Of a DNA stretch of 19,234 nt, positions 3,970-18,723 are shown piece after piece. The notes below the pieces were generated by a model. The model searched no databases and was not told where the DNA came from. It saw only the letters and a program-made list of their open reading frames with translations. The position numbers were made by a program, and so were the translations under genes. Positions within the stretch are counted from its first letter, which is position 1; each line of letters begins with the position of its first letter. The stretch lies in IMG/VR virus record IMGVR_UViG_2563366844_000003. One strand, 5' to 3'. The stretch comes from a virus (lineage: Duplodnaviria; Heunggongvirae; Uroviricota; Caudoviricetes).

Positions 3970-5030
3970 CCGCCCAGAAGAAGATATTTTCACTGGCTGG
4001 TATGTCGCCAAAATCCAGCAATATGACAGCAAAGTCTGGCATTAATACAGCAGACACAAGCAAAGTTTATCATTTTCTGGTGGTAGGAGCGGATGCCTTA
4101 ACTATGTCAGAAATTACGGTCGATGGTGTTAGCGTTGAGAAGGTCAGCGGCTGCGCCAGAGAATTTCTGGTCGTAGATGGCTTTCTCTGCTCGCGTAGTG
4201 ACTCCACAAAAACCTTCGTCCACACGCGCGACGTTAACGAAATGAGCGCGATGTATTGTGCATCTGGTGCTTCCAATTCTGAGTTTTCGGAGTCCATAAA
4301 AAAGAGCTTGCCGTTATGCGGCAACACGGTTTATGGTTATAAGGCACCTCATAAAACGGGTGCCGGGATTGGCGTCCTGGTAAATCGAATGGCGACATAT
4401 GACGCGCCGAGCGTCTTTTTTTATGTCGTAGGTCTGACTCACCCATTTTTTGGGCGTTGGTGTATAATCCAGCGCCTTTGTCAATCAATGGTGGCTCAGG
4501 CAGGGGCTTCTTCGGAAGCGCCGGTATCCATTCGAGCCGGTTACGCCAACCCTGTCTGGGCTACCACCAGCGAAATTGGCGTTTCCGGTGGTAGCGTTAC
4601 ATGCTATCGAATGGAGGCTGCCACATGCTGGCTACTACCCCTACCCAAAAACCGCAATTTATCTGGATTATCGCCGCAGTTCGCCGCGATTGCCCGACAA
4701 TTACCGCCAAAATTCATCATATTGCTGCCGAGTCTGAACGCGATGCTCGCCGTTCTCTGGTGCGCGATCACGTCTGCTTTTTTGCTGGTCGTATCCGCAT
4801 GGAGGTGGCACATGATTAAAACCTACGATGTGCATATGGATCCCCTCGAACGCACAAGCCAGATCATCACACTGACAGAAGTGATTAACGACATTCTGGT
4901 GAGCAACTCTCCCTCACGAGACGAAAGACTGAAGGCGTTACTCGCGATATTGGATCTCGCCGTTCGTGACGTTCATTTCCTGCTGGAAGGTGGCGAAATG
5001 CCAGGAAAAACGGGGGCAACCAATGAATAA
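3963..5030 (+). CDS. Uncertain long ORF (355 aa); possibly composite, with a regulatory region and nested small ORFs
   Basis: Strong GGAGG SD 7 nt before ATG 3963 and no in-frame stop to 5030. The 4400-4810 portion contains a terminator-like hairpin plus T-run, a TATAAT box, three open frames and a low-complexity Cys/Trp-rich translation. Confidence 0.3.
4401..4422 (+). terminator. Putative intrinsic terminator (GACGC-gccga-GCGTC followed by T7)
   Basis: 5-bp GC stem, 5-nt loop, seven consecutive T. Lies inside the 3963 ORF, so it is functional only if that ORF is not translated through. Confidence 0.3.
4430..4470 (+). promoter_or_regulatory. Putative promoter with consensus -10 TATAAT (4463-4468) for the operon leading to the primase
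   Basis: Perfect TATAAT hexamer preceded by TG-rich sequence. The -35 is only a weak match (CTGACT region). Sits immediately after the terminator-like hairpin. Confidence 0.3.
4625..4819 (+). CDS. Small ORF (64 aa), first candidate gene of the primase operon
   Basis: GGAGG SD (4613-4617) 7 nt before ATG 4625. The SD-to-ATG 17-mer ATGGAGGCTGCCACATG is nearly duplicated at 4797-4814. Overlaps another frame, so low confidence. Confidence 0.25.
   Translation: MLATTPTQKPQFIWIIAAVRRDCPTITAKIHHIAAESERDARRSLVRDHVCFFAGRIRMEVAHD
4812..5030 (+). CDS. Small ORF (72 aa), C-terminal part of the 3963 frame with its own strong start
   Basis: GGAGG (4801-4805) 6 nt before ATG 4812. Stop overlaps the next start (ATGAATAA). 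Translation is protein-like. Confidence 0.4.
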   Translation: MIKTYDVHMDPLERTSQIITLTEVINDILVSNSPSRDERLKALLAILDLAVRDVHFLLEGGEMPGKTGATNE

Positions 5031-5217
5031 CTCAATTAATGCCCATCGACTTACGTCCGCACTTCAATTAATCGAGCAAGCAGCGGCTGTCCTGGTTGCT
5101 GTCAGTCTTTCGGCTGAAGAAATGGACGCTGTTGATGTCGTGGATGCGATTAAAGCGTGCTCATCTTTGGTTAACGATGCCCGTGCAGAGCTGGTAATTC
5201 TTGGGGGTGAAAAATGA
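5023..5217 (+). CDS. Hypothetical small protein (64 aa)
   Basis: ATG 5023 overlaps the upstream stop; ends in ATGA overlap with the next ORF. Confidence 0.5.
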   Translation: MNNSINAHRLTSALQLIEQAAAVLVAVSLSAEEMDAVDVVDAIKACSSLVNDARAELVILGGEK

Positions 5218-5477
5218 ATATCAACTTAATTTATCGTCATCCGTGTGAGCTGGAAATTGAATCATTGCTGAGCCGTGAAGAGCCATATCCAGACACATTC
5301 ACTCTTGCAGATCGCACGACTGAACGGCTTACCAGAGCGCGCACAGGTCTGGTTCATGTGATGAATGAGATTCTTCCATCGGTGGGAGGGGAACAGGCGA
5401 CAGTAATCACTAGCTGGCTACAAAAAGTTACCTCTCTGATAGATATCAGTTTAATCGATGCGGAGAGTGCGAAATGA
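5214..5477 (+). CDS. Hypothetical small protein (87 aa)
   Basis: Start/stop overlaps with both neighbours (ATGA), consistent with translational coupling. Confidence 0.55.
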   Translation: MNINLIYRHPCELEIESLLSREEPYPDTFTLADRTTERLTRARTGLVHVMNEILPSVGGEQATVITSWLQKVTSLIDISLIDAESAK

Positions 5478-6642: not shown

Positions 6643-7006
6643 AAATGCAGAAATGGCGCTTAGCTCCGCAATCGGAGAGCAGGTGGCAAAGATTGCTGGT
6701 GCTGTGTGGATTCATAACCTTCATTCTACTGGTGAAGAGAAAATGGCAATTCAGACGCCAGAGGGACGCACCATTACTACATCTCTGAAGCCGTCAGATG
6801 TTTGTGATCTGATTTGCGCATTCATGTACCCAGCAATGAGGACTGTCCACGGCGATCAGTGGAAACTTGCGACAACCGCTGAATTTGATATGTGGCTAAA
6901 CAATGATGGCATGCTGACTGATTACGGAATAACCAAGTGGCAGATGCTGGTTAGCCATATCGCAAACGCTATAGACCACGTGGGGTACGGTGATGCGAAA
7001 CATTGA
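6635..7006 (+). CDS. Hypothetical protein (123 aa)
   Basis: GGAGG SD before ATG 6635; 3' end overlaps the primase start. Confidence 0.6.
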   Translation: MRENAEMALSSAIGEQVAKIAGAVWIHNLHSTGEEKMAIQTPEGRTITTSLKPSDVCDLICAFMYPAMRTVHGDQWKLATTAEFDMWLNNDGMLTDYGITKWQMLVSHIANAIDHVGYGDAKH

Positions 7007-9749
7007 TCTTATCCGTCAGGTTATCAGTGCGTCTGAAAACAACTGGCCTCATGTGCTGGGCTGCCTGAACATAAATGTCCCTGACTCTCCGCGCCGTCAT
7101 GCTCCCTGCCCTGCATGTGGGGGCAAAGATCGATTCCGGTTCGATGACAACGGGCGCGGTAGCTTCATCTGTAATCAGTGCGGCGCTGGTGATGGGCTGG
7201 ATTTAATTAAACGCGTAAATAACTGCGACACAACAGAGGCGGCGCTTCTTGCCGCTGATGTTCTGGGTATTGATTACCGGACAACGGAAACACCAGAAGC
7301 CACCAGCCAGAAACGGGAACAACTGGAAACCAAGCGCCAGCGACGCGAACAGGAGCGCCTGAAAAGGGCAGAGAAGGACGAACAACAAAGACGGGATACG
7401 TTTTCCCGTCAGTTTGATGACATGCGCAGAAAGGCTGTAAACGGCAAATCTGATTATCTGGTTGCGAAAGGGGTAGGTGATTTTACATTCCCCGTGTTGC
7501 CCGATGGATCTCTGTTGCTGGCGCTGGTGGATAAATCCGGCGCAGTCACAGCAGCACAGACTATTACCTCACATGGTGAAAAAAGACTCCTGACAGGTTC
7601 AGCAAAGCGGGGGGCATATCACGCCATAAACGCACCAGAAACAACACAGAGCATCTTAATCGCAGAAGGGCTGGCAACGGCATTATCTGCCCATTTAATT
7701 CGCCCAGAGGCGCTTACAGTGGCGGCGATTGATGCCGGGAACCTGTTATATGTCGCCCAGGTACTGCGGGATAAATTTCCTTCAGCACAAATCATCATTG
7801 CTGCGGATAACGACCACAGCGAAGGAAGACAAAACACGGGGAGAAGAGCAGCAGAAAAAGCAGCTTTATCTGTTTCTGGATGGGTGGCATTACCCCCGAC
7901 AGATCACAAAGCAGACTGGAATGATTACCACCAAAAACACGGCATTAAATGCGCCACAGAAGCGTTCAATAAGTCAATGTACCAACCACAGGGTAATGGC
8001 GTGAAACAGGAGCCACAGACCATTGAGGGAAGCGATTTTAAGGTTATGGATACCGACCCACTGAAACCAAGAATAGAAAGCCGCGAGGATGGTATTTATT
8101 GGGTATCTCCGAGAGCTGACAGCCAGAGTGGAGAAATCATCAATAACGAAAGCTGGTTATGTTCTCCGTTAAGCGTTATCGGTACTGGCAGAGACGATAA
8201 AGACCAGTATCTCATTCTTCGCTGGCTGTCGTTTGGTTCTGAAACGCCGACAACCGCTGCCATTCCACTGGCTGATATTGGTGAACGTGAAGGATGGCGC
8301 ACACTTAAAGCTGGTGGGGTAACTGTCACGACCAAAAGCAGCCTCAGAGCAATACTGGCAGACTGGCTACAACGCAGTGGCTCTCGTGAATTGTGGCGTG
8401 TTGCTCATGCCACTGGCTGGCAATGCGGAGCGTACATCATGCCTGATGGGGAAATCATCGGAACACCTGAAAATCCTGTGCTGTTCAGCGGGAGAAGCTC
8501 AGCCGCAGCCGGATATACCGTCTCAGGGAGCGCGAAAAGCTGGCGTGATAACGTGGCGCGTCTGGCCTTTGGTAACTATTCAATGATGACCGGGATCGGC
8601 GCAGCACTGGCAGCGCCATTGATTGGGCTGGTGGGCGCTGACGGGTTCGGCATTCATTTCTATGAGCAGTCGAGCGCAGGTAAGACCACCACGGCAAACG
8701 TGGCGAGCAGCTTATACGGCAACCCTGATTTACTGCGGCTGACGTGGTACGGAACCGCGCTGGGGCTGGCAAATGAAGCTGCCGCCCACAATGACGGACT
8801 AATGCCGCTTGATGAAGTTGGTCAGGGCGCTGATCCTGTCAGTGTTTCACAGTCTGCCTATGCGTTATTTAACGGTGTAGGGAAACTGCAAGGCGCTAAA
8901 GATGGTGGAAACCGGGATCTAAAACGCTGGCGTACAGTGGCAATCAGCACCGGAGAAATGGATTTAGAAACATTTATCGCTACTTCCGGGCGAAAAACCA
9001 AAGCCGGGCAACTGGTGCGACTGCTGAATATTCCGTTGAGTAAAGCAGTACGCTTTCACGATTACCAGAACGGAAAACAGCACGCAGACGCACTGAAAGA
9101 CGCTTACCAGCATCACCACGGCGCAGCCGGGCGTGAGTGGATTAAATGGCTGGCAGACCACCAGCAACAGGCAATTAAAACTGTTCGTGACCGCGAAAGC
9201 AGATGGAGAAGTCTGATCCCATCCGATTATGGTGAGCAGGTTCACCGTGTAGCCGCGCGATTTGCCATTCTGGAGGCCGCATTGCTGTTAGGCGAGGTTG
9301 TAACAGGCTGGGATGCTCAGACATGCCGTGATGCGATACAGCACAGCTATAACGCATGGTTGCGCGAGTTCGGCACAGGTAACAAAGAACATCAGCAGAT
9401 TATTGAACAAACGGAGGCATTTCTTAATGCCTATGGGCTTAGCCGTTTTGCACCATTTCCATACAGCCCGGCAGATTTGCCCATCAAAGATTTAGCCGGA
9501 TACCGTCAGCGTGGAGAACATGACGAAAGCCCAATGATTTTCTACACATTCCCGGCCACATTTGAAAAGGAGATCGCATGTGGTTTCAACGCAAAACAGT
9601 TTGCTGAAGTGTTGAAAAAAGCCGGGATGCTAACCCCACCAAACAGCGGTCGTGGATACCAAAGAAAATCACCACGTATTCAGGGACGACAAATAAACGT
9701 TTATGTACTCAATTACCAGCCAGGAGATTACAACTCATCTGAAGAATGA
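6993..9749 (+). CDS. Replicative primase/helicase, P4-alpha-like (zinc-binding N-terminus, TOPRIM, P-loop NTPase)
   Basis: Zn-ribbon CPACGG...FICNQCG near the N-terminus. TOPRIM-like ILIAEGLATA and IIIAADNDHSEG (acidic E and DxD). P-loop-like SSAGKTTT. Start is probably ATG 6993; the track begins at the in-frame GTG 6990. Confidence 0.9.
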   Translation: MRNIDLIRQVISASENNWPHVLGCLNINVPDSPRRHAPCPACGGKDRFRFDDNGRGSFICNQCGAGDGLDLIKRVNNCDTTEAALLAADVLGIDYRTTETPEATSQKREQLETKRQRREQERLKRAEKDEQQRRDTFSRQFDDMRRKAVNGKSDYLVAKGVGDFTFPVLPDGSLLLALVDKSGAVTAAQTITSHGEKRLLTGSAKRGAYHAINAPETTQSILIAEGLATALSAHLIRPEALTVAAIDAGNLLYVAQVLRDKFPSAQIIIAADNDHSEGRQNTGRRAAEKAALSVSGWVALPPTDHKADWNDYHQKHGIKCATEAFNKSMYQPQGNGVKQEPQTIEGSDFKVMDTDPLKPRIESREDGIYWVSPRADSQSGEIINNESWLCSPLSVIGTGRDDKDQYLILRWLSFGSETPTTAAIPLADIGEREGWRTLKAGGVTVTTKSSLRAILADWLQRSGSRELWRVAHATGWQCGAYIMPDGEIIGTPENPVLFSGRSSAAAGYTVSGSAKSWRDNVARLAFGNYSMMTGIGAALAAPLIGLVGADGFGIHFYEQSSAGKTTTANVASSLYGNPDLLRLTWYGTALGLANEAAAHNDGLMPLDEVGQGADPVSVSQSAYALFNGVGKLQGAKDGGNRDLKRWRTVAISTGEMDLETFIATSGRKTKAGQLVRLLNIPLSKAVRFHDYQNGKQHADALKDAYQHHHGAAGREWIKWLADHQQQAIKTVRDRESRWRSLIPSDYGEQVHRVAARFAILEAALLLGEVVTGWDAQTCRDAIQHSYNAWLREFGTGNKEHQQIIEQTEAFLNAYGLSRFAPFPYSPADLPIKDLAGYRQRGEHDESPMIFYTFPATFEKEIACGFNAKQFAEVLKKAGMLTPPNSGRGYQRKSPRIQGRQINVYVLNYQPGDYNSSEE

Positions 9750-9772
9750 GCTTCTTCATGTGCGTAGAAAAG

Positions 9773-9887
9773 GTGTTGGTTCAGTTGGTTCAGTTGGTTC
9801 AATTTATAAATGGTATTGTTTTATAAGGATTTTATTCTTTTTATTGAACCAACACTGAACCAACAACACGGTATTTTGAACCAACAC
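9773..9887. repeat. Iteron block 1: three tandem GTTGGTTCA (9775-9801), an AT-rich spacer, then three inverted copies TGAACCAAC (9845-9853, 9856-9864, 9877-9885); putative replication origin
   Basis: Exact 9-mers counted directly. Classic iteron plus AT-rich architecture, 26 bp downstream of the primase stop. Confidence 0.7.
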
Positions 9888-9935
9888 AATGTGACTGAAT
9901 TGATGCGCACAACACCTGGCTGGCATCAGAGAGTG

Positions 9936-10011
9936 TTTTACGAGACTTTCGTAAAATCCTGTGTACAAGGGCGTGACGTTTTTGAAAGTGAGCACTACGA
10001 AATTTTCGTAG
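9936..10011. promoter_or_regulatory. Two related palindromes sharing a TACGA/TCGTA half-site: TTTTACGA-n5-TCGTAAAA (9936-9956) and CTACGAAA-n1-TTTCGTAG (9995-10011)
   Basis: Perfect 8-bp inverted arms in both. Located between the iterons and the terminator; candidate operator sites or RNA hairpins. Confidence 0.3.
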
Positions 10012-10205
10012 TTCAGAAAACAGCCCTTGAGAAGTTGTTATGCCTGTTCAGCAAACCATCCGCATAGCTGATCGCGAATCAAATTACCAATGGAGCCAGA
10101 AGCAAGGGCAGAACTGAAAAGCGCCTGCCGTGAAGAGTAATGCGACACCATAAATATAGTTTTTAGAGTCCATAAAAAACCTGTCAAAACCTGACACACA
10201 GAACG

Positions 10206-10239
10206 ATGCCACCAGCTACTGAGCGGTGGCATTTTTTTT
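10206..10239 (+). terminator. Rho-independent terminator closing the primase/origin transcription unit
   Basis: ATGCCACC...GGTGGCAT stem (8 bp, extendable with inner pairs) followed by eight consecutive T. Confidence 0.65.
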
Positions 10240-10249
10240 GTGCTATATG

Positions 10250-10320
10250 TTTCATATTTTGCAATTACGATGATGAATGTTGCGATTTGTGAAACTATAA
10301 TAACTGTTGTTTTATACAGT
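10250..10320 (+). promoter_or_regulatory. Putative promoter region for the cargo operon (TATAAT at 10296-10301)
   Basis: AT-rich tract with a consensus -10 hexamer and TTGCAA/TTGCGA -35-like elements at non-ideal spacing, between the terminator and the SD of the small ORF. Confidence 0.3.
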
Positions 10321-10334
10321 TCTAAGGGGGCGTT

Positions 10335-10496
10335 ATGGCTATTTCAGTAAAGCCGGTATTGATAAGTGAGAAGCAAATGGAAGCGATAAAGAAAATTCAG
10401 GAAGAGCAGCGTAAAAAATCAGGAATTGGAGTAGCGCCAACTCTGCATGAAATTGCACGAGGGTTAATAGATAAGGCGCTGGCAGGCTGTATGTGA
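10335..10496 (+). CDS. Small ORF (53 aa) absent from the ORF track; possible ribbon-helix-helix-like regulator
   Basis: Strong SD AAGGGGG 5-6 nt before ATG 10335. Translation MAISVKPVLISEKQMEAIKKIQEEQRKKSGIGVAPTLHEIARGLIDKALAGCM has a beta-strand then two-helix pattern compatible with an RHH fold (by eye only). Confidence 0.4.
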   Translation: MAISVKPVLISEKQMEAIKKIQEEQRKKSGIGVAPTLHEIARGLIDKALAGCM

Positions 10497-10512
10497 AAAT
10501 GGATGGCATCGC

Positions 10513-10974
10513 ATGGAACTAAAATTTATTGATAACCCTGTGCGATTACAGGCCTTTCTTAACGAGCCTGGCAATACCGAAAATATTGTTGAGCCGGGGC
10601 ACACGTACTACATCAAGCCTGATGCGGTATATCTCGGTATCTACGAAGGATTGGTGCTGGCTGGCGTTCATGAAGTGCGTAACTTCTGGCATAACATTGT
10701 TGAATGCCATGCGGTGTACGACCCCGGATTCCGTGGTGAATATGCACTGCAAGGGCATCGATTATTCTGCAAATGGCTTCTCAAAAACTCACCATTCCTT
10801 AACAGCATTACCATGGTTCCTGACACCACCAAATACGGACGGGCAATTATCCGTTTGCTTGGCGCTACCCGTGTTGGTCACCTTGATGATGCTTATATCA
10901 GATGTGGTAAACCCGTCGGCGTAACGCTTTATCAGTTAACTCGGCAACAATATAAGGAATTCAGCGAATGTTAA
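10513..10974 (+). CDS. Putative virion-associated protein, first gene of the ejection-protein-like operon (position analogous to P22 gp14)
   Basis: 153-aa intact ORF whose stop overlaps the next start. Assignment rests on operon position and size, not a recognised motif. Confidence 0.65.
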   Translation: MELKFIDNPVRLQAFLNEPGNTENIVEPGHTYYIKPDAVYLGIYEGLVLAGVHEVRNFWHNIVECHAVYDPGFRGEYALQGHRLFCKWLLKNSPFLNSITMVPDTTKYGRAIIRLLGATRVGHLDDAYIRCGKPVGVTLYQLTRQQYKEFSEC

Positions 10975-11645
10975 TTACCCATATAGCTCATAAATATCTC
11001 AATCGTGCCGTATACGAAAAAGGCGGTGATGGTGGTGCCTCTAAAGCTCAGGCGAAGGCCCAGCAGCAGGCAATTGATTTGCAGCGCGAGCAGTGGAATA
11101 CGGTGATGAATAATCTCAAGCCGTATGCAGAAGTCGGATTGCCTGCTTTACAACAACTACAAGGACTGATGACTCTGGAAGGGCAGAATAAAGCCGCGAA
11201 TGATTTCTTTGGTTCTGGTTTATATAAAACACAGGCAGATCAGGCCCGTTATCAGAACCTTGTCTCAGCAGAAGCTACCGGGGGGCTTGGCTCAACAGCT
11301 ACCAGTAACCAGTTATCTTCCATTGCGCCCATGCTTTATAACAATTGGCTCAGTGGGCAAATGCAAAATTATGGAAACCTGCTAAATGTCGGGATGAATG
11401 CGGCATCAGGGCAGGCAACAGCAGGGCAAAACTACGCCAATAATACCGGACAACTCTTGCAGGGGCTTGGCGCTATTCGTGCAGGTCAGGCGCAGCAGCC
11501 ATCCAGTCTTGCGCGTGGTATTGGTGGGGCGGCATCAGGCGCTTTAGCGGGTGCGCAACTTGGTTCCGTTGTTCCGGGTATAGGTAATGTCGCCGGGGCT
11601 ATTGGTGGTGGGCTTATTGGTCTTGTTGGGGGGCTTGGATTCTAA
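10968..11645 (+). CDS. Putative ejection/DNA-transfer protein (P22 gp7-like architecture; Gly-rich hydrophobic C-terminus)
   Basis: 225 aa. Gln/Ala-rich N-terminal half and a glycine-zipper-like tail GIGGAASGALAGAQLGSVVPGIGNVAGAIGGGLIGLVGGLGF. Stop overlaps the next start (TAATG). Confidence 0.7.
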   Translation: MLITHIAHKYLNRAVYEKGGDGGASKAQAKAQQQAIDLQREQWNTVMNNLKPYAEVGLPALQQLQGLMTLEGQNKAANDFFGSGLYKTQADQARYQNLVSAEATGGLGSTATSNQLSSIAPMLYNNWLSGQMQNYGNLLNVGMNAASGQATAGQNYANNTGQLLQGLGAIRAGQAQQPSSLARGIGGAASGALAGAQLGSVVPGIGNVAGAIGGGLIGLVGGLGF

Positions 11646-12964
11646 TGGCGACATGGCAACTTGGCGGGCTGCCTAGCATGGCACCGCAAAATGATAATGC
11701 TCCTCGTTCTTCCGTTCCTCAGCCTGTGCAGTATCAGCAGCAGCCAAACGTAGGTTTAATGGCGCTACAGGGGCTAAGAGGCGTTGCTGAGATTAATCAG
11801 CAGGCGCAAATTTCCCAGCAGCTAAAAGAATATCAGGCACGGTTGGGTAGTGCGGTAGCTAATAATGATCGTGTTGGAGTGCAGAAGTTAATGGCCCAGT
11901 ATCCCCAGTTTATGGCTGATTCTCAAAAACAGATGGGATTCATTGATGCTGAGCAAAATCGACAGACCGCTGACGCTGCCATGAATCTGCGTCTTGCGTC
12001 ACAAACTGGAGATCCACTGACCATGCAGAAGGCCATTCAGCAGGCAAATCCAGTATTACAGCGATTTGGTCTTCCTGCTGAAGAGGTTTATCAGTCTTGG
12101 CAGAATGACCCACAGGAATTCAACAGAATCACTGACCTCATCCACCTCCATGCTGATCCAAATAGTTACTTTAGTGTTCAAGAGAAGCAGCAAGGGCAGA
12201 GCATTGCACAGCAGAACGCAGATACATCTGCATATAATGCTCAGGTTAATGCGGAACAGGGTAATCGGCGTCTCGATATGGAGCAGTTCAAAGTCCTATC
12301 CGATAACCAACTACGCACGAGAGAAATGGTTCTGAAAGCACGACTTGGACGTGCTCAAAATGACATCGAGAGAGACAAGCTCAATGCTGAACTGAGCAAA
12401 GTACAGCAGGCGAAAGTGGAGAAGATGAACGATAAAATTAATACTGTTGCAGGTAACATCGACTCCTTGAACTCTGCGCTTGAAGTGGGTCATGAACTGG
12501 CGGGAATTGTAGGGAAACATCCTTCGGCCGTTACCCGCTCGCAGAACTATAACCCCCTGACGCTGGGGTTTGGATTCCTTCCTGATGTAGCAGAAGACAC
12601 ACGAAGCCTACGCGCCAAAGCTGATGAATACAACCTAAAGGTTATTCTGCCTAGCCTCAAAGGGACTTTTGGCTCTAACCCAACCGAAGGGGAAAGGGCT
12701 GCCCTTATGCAATCTCAAAATGGCATTAAGTCAGCAACCAGCAATGAGGCATTTTTGCGAGAGTTGAATAAAGCGCAGGACGTAATTATTCGAATGCAGA
12801 AACGACAGATTGCCGGGCTCGGTATTCCTGTAACCAAATCAAAGGACGAAGAAACTGATACCAAAATGCTGTTGCAGGATCCTTCACTGATTAAGGATTA
12901 TGTGACCGCACATGGCTATCTGCCGGAAAGTTACTATCAGGCAAAACTTAAGGGATGGCAATGA
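11645..12964 (+). CDS. Putative ejection protein (P22 gp20-like; Gln-rich coiled-coil)
   Basis: 439 aa, Gln-rich and predicted alpha-helical. Coupled start/stop with both neighbours. Confidence 0.7.
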   Translation: MATWQLGGLPSMAPQNDNAPRSSVPQPVQYQQQPNVGLMALQGLRGVAEINQQAQISQQLKEYQARLGSAVANNDRVGVQKLMAQYPQFMADSQKQMGFIDAEQNRQTADAAMNLRLASQTGDPLTMQKAIQQANPVLQRFGLPAEEVYQSWQNDPQEFNRITDLIHLHADPNSYFSVQEKQQGQSIAQQNADTSAYNAQVNAEQGNRRLDMEQFKVLSDNQLRTREMVLKARLGRAQNDIERDKLNAELSKVQQAKVEKMNDKINTVAGNIDSLNSALEVGHELAGIVGKHPSAVTRSQNYNPLTLGFGFLPDVAEDTRSLRAKADEYNLKVILPSLKGTFGSNPTEGERAALMQSQNGIKSATSNEAFLRELNKAQDVIIRMQKRQIAGLGIPVTKSKDEETDTKMLLQDPSLIKDYVTAHGYLPESYYQAKLKGWQ

Positions 12965-15681
12965 TGGCACAACTGACAGAAAAACAGAAAGCCTATTCCC
13001 GTCATCTCGATGAAAAATATGGTTTCCCATCAGGGACGATGGAAACATTAGTTGGCAATGAATCTAGTGGTAACGGAAGTGCCGAGTCACCGAAAGGAGC
13101 TAGAGGATTTGCTCAACTGATGCCCTCAGTAATGAGTGATGCTGGTTATCGTGGAACTGATCCGCGCTCACTGCCATTTGAAAAGCAAATGGATATCGCA
13201 GCAAACCATCTCAATAAAGGAATGAAGCGATTTGGTGATATTGGTATGGCATTGGCTGGGTATAATTCTGGCTATGCTCGTATTAATGCCGTCAGAAACG
13301 GTAAATCTACACTGCCAGATGAAACGGCTAATTACGTAAGTAAATTTGCAGATGCCGGAATAATCCCTGATGACAGTGAAATCTTGCAGTTTGCACAAAC
13401 CAGTCAACATCGCAATCTTCAGCAGCCTGACTACTCAGAGCTTGATAAAGAAATCTCTCAGGTGGGAGATATTTCTGCATGGGAAGCAAAACGTCAGCAA
13501 TTTAAGAACATAGAAGCAGGACTACCAACAGCCAGTTCATGGGAGCAGAAAAGAGCTCAGTTTCTCGCCGATGAAAATGCCGGGGAACCGCAGCAGCAAG
13601 TAGCCAAGTCTAACCTTAATCCTGAGATGGAATATCTTTCGCCAGGACTGAAAGCTGCGCCAGAGCAGATGGCCAGAGGGATTGCTAATATACCGTTTGA
13701 TGTAATGGACGCAGGCGTGGGGGTAGTCAATGCGGCGCAATCAGCCGGAGCATGGGCAGCTCAGAAGCTTGGTGTGGGTGATGGCACATACACGCCCATA
13801 TCACCTGTCTTTCGCCCAGTAGACCAACCTACAGATCCATACGCGCAGGCTGGTGAGCAGCTAGCACCTTACCTTATTACAGGATTAGGTGCAGGAAAGG
13901 CAGCTACCGCAGCTTCTTCCGTTGCCAACGCTCCACGTGCTGAACGTGCGGCCACAAAGGTGGCTAGTATGTTGGCAGAAAACCTGCCAGGTACATTGGT
14001 GAACGCCCAAAAGAACGGGCAGATCAGCCCAGAAGACCTAGCAAAAGAGACAGGTATTGGCCTAGCAGGATCGCTAGGAGCACGCGCTTTAATAAAGAGC
14101 GGACAGACAGCCAGTGACGTAATGCGAGATGTATTGCGGAGTAATACAAATCAATCAGGCCATGTGTTAGGGGCAGCAAATACTCTGGAAACCGCCAATG
14201 ATGTATCGAAAGCAGCGCGTTCTGCCGTAGGCCGAGAGCATATCGCATCGCAGGCATCAAACGTCAGAGATGATGTCGCTAAGGCGGCGAAAATCACTGG
14301 TATTAATATCAACACCCTGACGCCCGGAATGCGCTCAGGTAGTCGTGGAATTGCCCAAGCAGAAGGTGTTCTGGCATCAACTCCTGGGAATGTTCAGGAT
14401 GCTCACCTTACGGCCTTCAATGAAATATCCTCAAAGTTGAATAAGCAGTTGTCTGATTTCGGTGCTGAGTCTGGAAGCGCATCAGAAAAAAGCGCAGCAA
14501 TTAAAGAGCGCATCATCGCGAGCCTCAGTGATATGAAAACAGCAGAGAATATGGCATGGGCAGAACTGCGAAGCACGATGCCACGCGAAAGGATGAAAAT
14601 GAGTAATGGGATGGCTGTCGTCCAAGCAGAAAAAGCAGCCAATGTTCCACTCAGCCCGGAGATGAAACAGTTTCAGGCTGCCAACAACCAAGGTGGCGGC
14701 ATAACCTTCGACGGGATGAAGGCATGGCGTGCTAAGTTTGCTGATGCTGAACAAGCAAACACCCGGGCAGGTAAGGCCAATGCCGCCCGGATTGCCGGAG
14801 AAATGCGCAGAGCTATCACTGATGACATGCGCATCATGGCTGAAAAAGGAAACTTCCTCACAGAATGGCAGAAAGCTAACGATCTCTCTAAAAGTTACAT
14901 TATCGCCAAACAAAATGCCGAATCTGTTTTTGGTCGAGATCTCGCATCAGACGCTATGGTAAGAAAAGGTGCCGATACGCTTAAGGCATCCGCAAACACT
15001 GGAACGGGAGCTTTTCACCGCCTTATCTCCGCGCTGCCGGAAGCAGAACGCCAACCAGCAATAGCATCTATTCTTCAGCATGCTGTGGCGCAGGGAGAGA
15101 AGGGAGGAATCGGTGAAGAGTCTGGTATCCAGTATTTTGCCAAGCTCATGACCCAGCAGAATGTAAACGCCATCAGTCGTCATGCGCCAGATCTCGGTAG
15201 AATGATGAAAGAGTTCGGTGTACTCGCTAAAGCCAGCACCAGACCGCAGCGATACGTAGAGCGCACGGGAAGAACAACTGAGGCTCTCAAAACGCTCGAT
15301 TCAGGCCTTCCAAAGATCGTCGGTGTGATCATGAACGGAGTTCAACAGTCAGGTGCGATCGCTGGAGGCTTTGGCGGTGGTGTAATTGGTTCGATTAGTG
15401 GTTTGGTTGCTGGTGGCGCACTGAGAAATACTGTGGCTAAGATTGGGGCGACAAGAAGTGGTCGATATGCGATAGAGAAAGCCGTTCAGGAAGCTACAAA
15501 AGCAGTGCGCGCAGGGGCATCACCAGCAGCGATCGCCGCAGCAGAGAAACGATTTTCGACCAATAAAATTGCCATGAAAGCAATTCGTGATGCCGTTGGG
15601 GCTGAAGAATTCGTGAAACTGACAAGGGCCGGGATTGTAGCTACCCTCAGTGGCATGAAAGATGTTAGCGAATGGGAATAG
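12955..15681 (+). CDS. Large internal virion/ejection-type protein with N-terminal lytic transglycosylase (SLT) domain
   Basis: 908 aa. SLT motifs GNESSGNGSAESPKGARGFAQLMP (putative catalytic Glu at nt 13060-13062) and ALAGYNSGYARINAV. True start is probably ATG 12961 or 12964, which have better SD spacing from AAGGGA. Confidence 0.85.
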   Translation: MAMMAQLTEKQKAYSRHLDEKYGFPSGTMETLVGNESSGNGSAESPKGARGFAQLMPSVMSDAGYRGTDPRSLPFEKQMDIAANHLNKGMKRFGDIGMALAGYNSGYARINAVRNGKSTLPDETANYVSKFADAGIIPDDSEILQFAQTSQHRNLQQPDYSELDKEISQVGDISAWEAKRQQFKNIEAGLPTASSWEQKRAQFLADENAGEPQQQVAKSNLNPEMEYLSPGLKAAPEQMARGIANIPFDVMDAGVGVVNAAQSAGAWAAQKLGVGDGTYTPISPVFRPVDQPTDPYAQAGEQLAPYLITGLGAGKAATAASSVANAPRAERAATKVASMLAENLPGTLVNAQKNGQISPEDLAKETGIGLAGSLGARALIKSGQTASDVMRDVLRSNTNQSGHVLGAANTLETANDVSKAARSAVGREHIASQASNVRDDVAKAAKITGININTLTPGMRSGSRGIAQAEGVLASTPGNVQDAHLTAFNEISSKLNKQLSDFGAESGSASEKSAAIKERIIASLSDMKTAENMAWAELRSTMPRERMKMSNGMAVVQAEKAANVPLSPEMKQFQAANNQGGGITFDGMKAWRAKFADAEQANTRAGKANAARIAGEMRRAITDDMRIMAEKGNFLTEWQKANDLSKSYIIAKQNAESVFGRDLASDAMVRKGADTLKASANTGTGAFHRLISALPEAERQPAIASILQHAVAQGEKGGIGEESGIQYFAKLMTQQNVNAISRHAPDLGRMMKEFGVLAKASTRPQRYVERTGRTTEALKTLDSGLPKIVGVIMNGVQQSGAIAGGFGGGVIGSISGLVAGGALRNTVAKIGATRSGRYAIEKAVQEATKAVRAGASPAAIAAAEKRFSTNKIAMKAIRDAVGAEEFVKLTRAGIVATLSGMKDVSEWE

Positions 15682-18435: not shown

Positions 18436-18723
18436 ATGATGAGGGACAGGAAAGCTGAAGAGCTGGAGTCAAAAGGGCTATGCCGGAGAGCTGCCGCACG
18501 ATGGGCAGAAGTCATGACGCTGGCAGATGGCGATAAAGAACGTGAACATGCAGCAAACAGACGCTCTGAATGTATCCGTAGGGCGGCACGCCCACCAGCA
18601 ACTACAGACAGATTCGGAGATTTAAGACAGGCAGTTAAGCGAACTCATTCGGCTCTTGGTATGGATGAGGAAGCGAGAGGGTACTTCAGGCGTTATCGCG
18701 ATAAAGATTGCCAGAGACAGTAA
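18436..18723 (+). CDS. PerC-family transcriptional regulator (tentative)
   Basis: 95 aa. N-terminus KAEELESKGLCRRAAARWAEVM resembles the PerC motif (AEKLEAKGLWRRAA.RW.EV) as I recall it. GAGAGG SD. Confidence 0.6.
   Translation: MMRDRKAEELESKGLCRRAAARWAEVMTLADGDKEREHAANRRSECIRRAARPPATTDRFGDLRQAVKRTHSALGMDEEARGYFRRYRDKDCQRQ

Follow-up and report, generated by a model that had tools for sequence, protein, structure and literature searches.

A 53-codon open reading frame (ORF) at positions 10335-10496 of the viral sequence record IMGVR_UViG_2563366844_000003 (19,234 nt in total, here called the window) is a real, conserved gene whose product is supported by structure modeling as a ribbon-helix-helix (RHH) protein. 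The gene sits behind a transcription terminator and a promoter that carries two paired inverted repeats (dyads) and, in the Escherichia coli lineage, a LexA-type SOS box, and it directly precedes genes for DNA-ejection proteins. The window itself is a phage satellite, a phage-inducible chromosomal island (PICI) of the EcCIMP1 type, rather than a phage. Read together, these features suggest that the small protein is an Arc/CopG-like autorepressor of its own insulated, SOS-responsive cargo promoter, a reading to which we assign a probability of about 0.5. All features described below from the terminator to the last ejection gene lie on the plus strand unless another strand is given.

The gene runs from an ATG at 10335 to a TGA at 10494-10496 and encodes the product MAISVKPVLISEKQMEAIKKIQEEQRKKSGIGVAPTLHEIARGLIDKALAGCM. 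A Shine-Dalgarno (SD) sequence, AAGGGGG, can be read at 10324-10330, 4 nt before the ATG, and in all relatives this element is either GGAGG or GGGGG. Both the frame and the SD lie where a sequence-only reading of the window had placed them; that reading had also called the ORF unannotated, which is correct for its ORF track only, since RefSeq lists the product as hypothetical protein WP_001018524.1. Homologs were found in Leclercia, Cedecea, Raoultella, Klebsiella, Citrobacter, Pantoea, and Lonsdalea and, as proteins, in Serratia and Salmonella, and the DNA of the window's small ORF is present in ~500 of 5426 complete E. coli genomes (~9%). Conservation of the frame among relatives had been proposed as a check on the gene, and wobble-type variation with low dN/dS ratios across genera indicates that the frame is indeed conserved. 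In a 45-codon core compared with loci of eight other genera, third codon positions vary in 43 of 45 codons, first positions in 21 of 45, and second positions in 11 of 45, a pattern directly visible in the DNA alignment, and pairwise dN/dS ratios are 0.04-0.2, with synonymous sites often saturated. Because the codon-position variation and dN/dS are far beyond chance, the 53-codon frame is a real conserved gene and a spurious ORF is excluded; the codon-position pattern of the plus-strand frame likewise rules out an antisense ORF of 56 aa at 10339-10509. An exhaustive profile search covering 1.8 billion representatives returned 60 clusters, nearly all of 50-90 aa, with the family consensus xxKPVLLsxxQxxALxxIQExERKxSxxGxAPtIHxIARxLxDKAL, in which R42 is invariant and S29, G32, P35, A41, and L49 are nearly so. 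The small protein was unmatched in a tblastn search of 50,697 phage records, and PHROGs and PADLOC returned nothing useful for it.

The sequence-only reading had guessed at a ribbon-helix-helix DNA-binding protein. As to fold, the guess is upheld by an AlphaFold2 model and by structure comparison; as to sequence, no RHH family was matched. The model, built on a 38-sequence alignment with a predicted local distance difference test (pLDDT) score of 91.6, has an extended N-terminus followed by helices at residues 12-28 and 37-52, which is the RHH layout of an N-terminal strand and two helices within ~45-50 residues. Its top structural match was the N-terminal domain of TraM, followed by the RHH domain of PutA, NikR, HP0222, ParD, a CopG-family protein, AmrZ, CdbA, Arc, omega, and SvtR; an unusually long helix A with an 8-residue loop behind it is common specifically to the small protein and TraM. 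The fold is considered supported because structure comparison recognizes the family though sequence methods fail. Comparison of the 38 family members with the RHH Pfam models at E-values up to 10 gave zero matches, PDB sequence and profile searches gave chance matches only, and Pfam scans of individual members at E = 10 gave scattered single matches only, among them LexA_DNA_bind and Sigma70_r3. The protein is the founder of an unnamed RHH family of ~60 cluster representatives that is without a Pfam model. A nearly invariant S29-G32-P35-[ST]36 loop sits at the start of helix B, where RHH proteins touch the DNA phosphates. A truncated winged-helix domain like the N-terminal domain of LexA was considered and rejected: its hhalign probability of 26% was the best of a poor set, a third (recognition) helix is missing, and the glycine of the presumed turn is not conserved.

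The intrinsic terminator that the sequence-only reading had located at 10206-10239 is confirmed by its stem, its T8 run, and its fold energy. A GC-rich 8-bp stem (ATGCCACC at 10206-10213 with GGTGGCAT at 10225-10232) and an inner 3-bp stem precede a run of eight T residues that extends to 10239, and the RNA folds at -24.4 kcal/mol (z = -6.2), which none of 200 shuffled sequences equaled. The terminator ends the backbone transcription unit of the primase gene, and loci L003, L009, and L024 have nonhomologous terminators at the equivalent position. Beyond it lies a promoter with a perfect -10 hexamer, TATAAT (10296-10301), kept across genera, and, 17 nt upstream of this, a weak putative -35 element, ATGAAT (10273-10278; aTGATC in the consensus of the relatives), which a consensus promoter scan did not pick up. 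The -35 is bracketed by the two dyads. The distal dyad (box 1), TTTCATATTTTGCAA at 10250-10264, is a candidate operator just upstream of the -35 that fits the pattern TTKCA-N5-TGMAA with zero mismatches, and the proximal dyad (box 2), TTGCGATTTGTGAAA at 10280-10294, fits it with one mismatch and fills the 17-nt spacer between -35 and -10. The half-sites of each dyad are 10 bp apart and the two dyads are exactly 30 bp, or three helical turns, apart, and all four half-sites would therefore be on one face of the helix.

The layout from terminator to SD is fixed among relatives of several genera, and conservation within it is concentrated in the half-sites. Over 45 distinct promoter sequences, the half-sites of box 1 carry 1.67 bits versus 1.11 bits in its N5 spacer and those of box 2 carry 1.63 versus 1.01 bits, which equals the conservation of the -10 (1.63 bits); the -35 carries 1.16 bits and the adjacent flank 0.65 bits. 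Similarly, the differences in box 2 between the window and L011, an E. coli variant of 91% identity, fall within the N5 spacer and spare the half-sites. The dyad pattern is ~80-fold enriched upstream of the small ORF (27 occurrences in 2276 nt versus 35 in 235,214 nt), being present in all 50 satellite-type IMG/VR loci and forming the 30-bp pair in 41 of them, and the window has no further dyads elsewhere. This anatomy reads as that of a repressor operator, and it shares the geometry of the Arc operator. Helix-turn-helix dimers, too, would suit a 15-bp inverted repeat whose half-sites are spaced by 10 bp. It is unlikely, though conceivable, that the dyads belong to another regulator, be it AlpA or another helix-turn-helix protein of the satellite, a helper-phage protein, or a host factor, and that the RHH protein acts on a different target. 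Two points are compatible with such an arrangement: strand residues of the small protein and half-sites do not covary, and islands of the EcCIMP1 type are switched on through helper-induced AlpA (PMC11773190). However, the dyads occur nowhere else in the island and are not paired in the helper-type phage Kapi1; in L016 they stay linked to the small ORF amid unrelated upstream genes and with no primase nearby; and in L008, L012, and L018, where the small ORF lies within another operon or a phage and the promoter is absent, the dyads are absent too. No activator sites of the P2/P4 Ogr/delta type (TGT-N12-ACA) were seen by eye in 10240-10300. In L008 (Citrobacter amalonaticus, 7256-9066), the module is placed atypically: the small ORF lies inside an operon between the integrase and the alpA region, and the next two genes encode proteins of 187 and 114 aa that belong to no recognized family.

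The promoter also has a LexA-type SOS box, AACTGTTGTTTTATACAGTT (10302-10321), which the sequence-only reading had not noted. It lies downstream of the -10 and upstream of the SD, overlaps the predicted transcription start near 10308, and is the sole CTGT-N8-ACAG in the window. With a matrix built from 19 E. coli SOS boxes, themselves scoring 12.8-25.9 bits, this site scores 18.2 bits, a value that none of 100 shuffles reached; the second-highest site in the window scores 8.6 bits. The site has the sequence features of LexA-regulon promoters, namely a 16-bp CTGT-N8-ACAG palindrome with an AT-rich center that overlaps the promoter or start. A box is found at the same place in 14 of 14 E. coli-type IMG/VR loci and also in L009, L010, L024, L072, and L074 and in the Pantoea/Lonsdalea-type loci. 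The cargo promoter is therefore probably SOS-controlled in the E. coli lineage, with LexA as the predicted ligand of the box. In ~27 Klebsiella-type loci the box is one nucleotide short (CTGTATAAATATCAG), yet this shorter element is itself conserved.

The gene is the predicted first cistron of a self-contained transcription unit in which helper-type DNA-ejection genes follow. If the small protein is an autorepressor, its dimers would pair on each 15-bp dyad, filling the four half-sites, and the two occupied dyads, bracketing the -35, would occlude RNA polymerase. The operon would in this manner repress itself and hold its ejection proteins, which act on membrane and wall, at a low level. A second lock, in the E. 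coli lineage, would be LexA, freed by the same SOS signal that induces a helper prophage, and the terminator would isolate the cargo unit from the AlpA-driven backbone. The suggestion of the sequence-only reading that the small protein acts as a dedicated regulator of the cargo module is thus plausible. Both the binding of the protein to the dyads and repression through that binding are predicted here from the arrangement of sites and the fold.

Several observations weigh against this reading. Foremost is the main internal doubt over DNA binding: with its sequence V-K-P-V-L-I, the predicted strand is more hydrophobic than a base-reading ribbon usually is. Additionally, the E. coli variant is without the basic N-terminal arm that its relatives have, and the model is of a single chain in which the strand is extended without a partner. 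Sequence searches of the small protein in Pfam, NCBIfam, and PDB match no RHH family, and hhalign comparisons with Arc/Mnt, CopG, NikR, ParG, and TraM are not significant. On the DNA side, the half-sites are unchanged in L013 and L016 despite differing strand residues, such that protein and operator show no covariation, and about half of the satellite loci have a box that is one nucleotide too short for LexA. Further, longer homologs reside in genuine phage structural operons without dyads, and pure negative autoregulation alone leaves the switching on of the operon unexplained. The hydrophobic strand and a net charge of only ~+3 would also suit a small protein that does not bind DNA but serves ejection or tape-measure proteins as an adaptor or chaperone and has its strand-helix-helix shape by chance, as would the constant adjacency of the gene to DNA-delivery genes, with stop and start codons often overlapping. 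Such a role is nonetheless improbable: the delivery proteins are mutually unrelated while the small protein is conserved, nearly all of the top structural matches are DNA-binding RHH domains, and the invariant R42 and the near-invariant loop at the phosphate-contact position of RHH proteins speak against it.

The genes that the proposed autorepressor would control in the window encode a P22-type ejection apparatus. The first cargo cistron, a DUF2824/P22 gp14-like gene (10513-10974; Pfam PF11039, E = 2e-61; phrog_651), starts 16 nt past the small-ORF stop and is followed by genes for a P22 gp7-like ejection protein (10968-11645; Pfam PF25688, E = 2e-72), a P22 gp20-like ejection protein or injectosome translocase (11645-12964; Pfam PF16928, E = 4e-22), and a gp16-like DNA transfer protein with an N-terminal lytic transglycosylase domain (12955-15681; Pfam SLT, E = 1e-12; phrog_770, E = 2e-120). 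Kapi1 alone among phages matches the window well at the DNA level, and its match is confined to the DUF2824 gene. Relative to Kapi1 (L027 29086-32582 for comparison), identity is 83% for the DUF2824 protein, 57% for gp7, and 25-26% for the gp20- and gp16-like proteins. Because the DUF2824 and gp7 proteins are close to Kapi1 while the gp20- and gp16-like proteins reach only 25-26%, the cargo is mosaic and is probably fitted to another helper, in place of or besides Kapi1. The tail needle gene of Kapi1 is directly followed by its gp14/gp7/gp20/gp16 genes, with no small ORF.

Among related loci, the cargo behind the small ORF differs. The window and many E. coli loci have P22 gp14/7/20/16 genes; L011, which samples 241 E. 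coli records in the 90-95% identity band, has gp20/gp16 genes only; L003, L006, L007, and others have a T7 gp14-like gene and an SLT internal virion protein gene; L004 has an SLT "lytic tail" protein gene; and L005, L009, L010, and L024 have a tape-measure protein gene. Recognizable DNA-delivery genes are directly downstream in 40 of the 50 IMG/VR satellite loci, and a recognizable alternative is found in none of the 50. RHH subtypes and cargo types occur in shuffled combinations, which points to repeated recombination just after the small ORF. What changes between loci is the set of genes behind the small ORF, whereas the ORF and its promoter stay the same; the small ORF therefore marks the left edge of a slot that is prone to recombination and given over to DNA-delivery genes. 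The slot was seen in the window (10513-15681) and in L003-L011, L013, L024, and L028-L077, and no paper describing a fixed slot of helper-type delivery genes in EcCIMP1-type satellites was found in the literature searched. PADLOC identified no defense system in the window cargo or in ten cargo proteins of other loci. As a separate observation, L003 (8262-8474) and L006 (8250-8444) have a second conserved small ORF (64-70 aa, MNITDEELLQ...), without a PHROG match, which separates the RHH gene from the genes for T7-like internal virion proteins.

The same diversity of neighbors bears on the possibility that the small protein is an RHH antitoxin with the DUF2824 protein as its toxin, which is contradicted because the downstream neighbor is not conserved: it is DUF2824 in the window, gp20-like in the L011 band, and a tape-measure or SLT protein elsewhere. 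Moreover, the small protein lacks a C-terminal extension for toxin binding, the DUF2824 family is that of P22 gp14-type head-morphogenesis proteins and occurs in Kapi1 without the small ORF, and PADLOC gave zero matches. RHH proteins of this kind do have the fold in question, and still the pairing can be set aside with near certainty.

One branch of the family is phage-borne. A subfamily of 88-113 aa with acidic C-termini (ending EEE) is found inside structural operons of 39-46 kb phage contigs, where the gene lies between those for a phrog_418 internal virion protein and an SLT internal virion protein; homologs of this phage type are at L012 5890-6000, L018 6647-6756, and L019 5140-5245 and also in L078-L086. 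The SD of the phage-type gene is buried in a hairpin, CCTCCTG...CAGGAGG, and this sequestration suggests translational control of the gene. In a cultured relative, Stenotrophomonas phage BUCT708, the gene is missing at the corresponding junction. In L019 and L020 (~5050-5245), the 3' end of a phage internal-virion-protein gene lies behind a DUF927 primase gene and is followed by a phage-type small ORF and an SLT gene. This arrangement looks like the scar of module capture from a phage and indicates traffic between phages and satellites.

The phage-borne branch keeps open a possible role tied to DNA delivery itself. In this alternative, the small protein would be a TraM-like DNA-handling accessory factor that may mark or hold satellite or phage DNA, either at one end or at a particular site, on behalf of the ejection or tape-measure machinery, with autoregulation secondary. 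The closest structural analog is indeed the N-terminal domain of relaxosome TraM, which has the same unusually long helix A and loop; in 40 of 50 IMG/VR satellite loci and in most other loci examined, the gene is followed by DNA-delivery genes, whose architectures are of three unrelated kinds; the 88-113-aa phage homologs directly precede the SLT internal virion protein gene and have no dyads; and in L019/L020 the phage-type gene appears to have entered the satellite along with its SLT neighbor. Despite these points, we regard such a factor as rather unlikely. Satellite proteins are 60-100% identical even though the delivery proteins encoded next to them are unrelated, and this speaks against a specific partner; the gene is absent from BUCT708 at the same junction and is thus dispensable for that virion type; and the dyads, which Kapi1 lacks as a pair, sit exactly on the promoter, where regulators bind. 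A broader and doubtful proposal goes further: the whole stretch from the terminator through the dual-dyad promoter and SOS box to the RHH gene could form a conserved expression slot of a widespread enterobacterial PICI lineage, one that repeatedly takes in delivery modules fitted to the current helper (P22-type ejection, T7-like core, or siphovirus tape measure) and so arms hijacked virions. The RHH protein would then be more than a repressor, namely a TraM-like factor that couples packaged DNA to the ejection apparatus.

The wider window is consistent with the satellite assignment. An integrase gene (1-1260), a gene for an AlpA-like helix-turn-helix regulator (2314-2517), and a replication module with a TOPRIM/DUF927 primase gene (6990-9749) are the features of PICIs, which are islands of ~15-20 kb; an antirepressor, an Ash-family gene, and a PerC homolog (18436-18723) are also encoded. 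A homologous island adjoins tRNA-Thr, between proA and the pao genes. The PICI identity assigned here rests on gene content; mobilization by a helper, the P22-like phage Kapi1, was shown for EcCIMP1 (PMC11773190) and is predicted for the copy in the window. Rfam matches above the gathering score comprise int-alpA RNA (1269-1335), between the integrase gene and the next gene, and isrK and C4 antisense RNAs (4344-4421 and 4484-4571), inside or next to the Ash-family gene region, which amount to P4/P1-style RNA immunity within a PICI backbone. The 585-nt gap between the primase gene and the small ORF is 97% conserved between the window and L011, above the small ORF itself. An Rfam scan of this interval (9750-10335) gave no RNA family. 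Two further ORFs were considered there: one of 85 aa on the plus strand (9810-10067), between primase and terminator, loses its ATG in L011 and has no codon-position bias, and one of 64 aa on the minus strand (10038-10232) has no family match and substitutions without codon bias; both are probably not genes.

To our knowledge, satellites are not generally thought to carry helper-matched DNA-injection proteins. The literature searched gave no description of a conserved cassette of RHH gene and SOS promoter that heads interchangeable injection modules in satellites of many enterobacterial genera, and this pattern of one cassette with many modules lifts the locus above a routine small regulator. 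The small gene offers a fixed landmark for the swappable cargo region of EcCIMP1-type satellites, whose left border it marks. If the autorepressor reading is true, RHH autorepression together with LexA would explain how potentially toxic ejection and transglycosylase proteins are silenced in the lysogen-free state, and the circuit would explain how cargo is released alongside helper induction, in parallel to LexA control of operon I of the staphylococcal pathogenicity islands (SaPIs). The locus provides a compact, testable unit of promoter, operator, and repressor, and with it a handle on the question of why satellites need ejection proteins of their own.

Among known regulators, the Arc/Mnt repressors of the phage P22 immI region have no detectable sequence similarity to the small protein. 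In comparison with Arc, the small protein has a longer helix A and inter-helix loop, two dyads 30 bp apart are present rather than one, and the predicted targets are DNA-ejection genes, whereas Arc controls an antirepressor. CopG, ParD, the N-terminal domain of NikR, omega, and AmrZ have the same fold and are small autoregulators that head their operons; the new family differs from such CopG/RHH_1-type repressors in that none of its members is matched by an RHH Pfam model at a threshold as loose as E = 10. The likeness to the TraM N-terminal domain of F-like plasmids (pED208 3OMY and 3ON0; F 4QPO) is structural only (hhalign P = 0.03, not significant): the small protein, at 53 aa, has no C-terminal domain for tetramerization and TraD binding and no Pfam TraM match, and it is encoded by a chromosomal, non-conjugative PICI. 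Type II RHH antitoxins have a conserved downstream toxin and a C-terminal toxin-binding segment, neither of which is found here. At the level of the whole element, the window resembles EcCIMP1 in its integrase, AlpA, antirepressor, Ash, TOPRIM-DUF927 primase, DUF2824 and "DNA transfer" genes, and PerC. The genes after the EcCIMP1 primase, EcCIMP1_017-019, are regarded in the EcCIMP1 paper as candidates for packaging functions, and no mention of the small ORF, promoter, dyads, or LexA box was found in the text and supplements searched (PMC11773190). In SaPIs, packaging operon I is reported to have its own promoter under LexA/SOS control, independent of the master regulator (Ubeda 2007, cited in PMC6092414). 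The locus described here differs in its Gram-negative host, in carrying ejection cargo instead of genes for the terminase small subunit and capsid size, in its additional RHH gene with dyads, and in that LexA binding is only predicted; the likeness lies in a virion-related satellite operon that is placed downstream of the replication module and equipped with its own, here predicted, SOS promoter.

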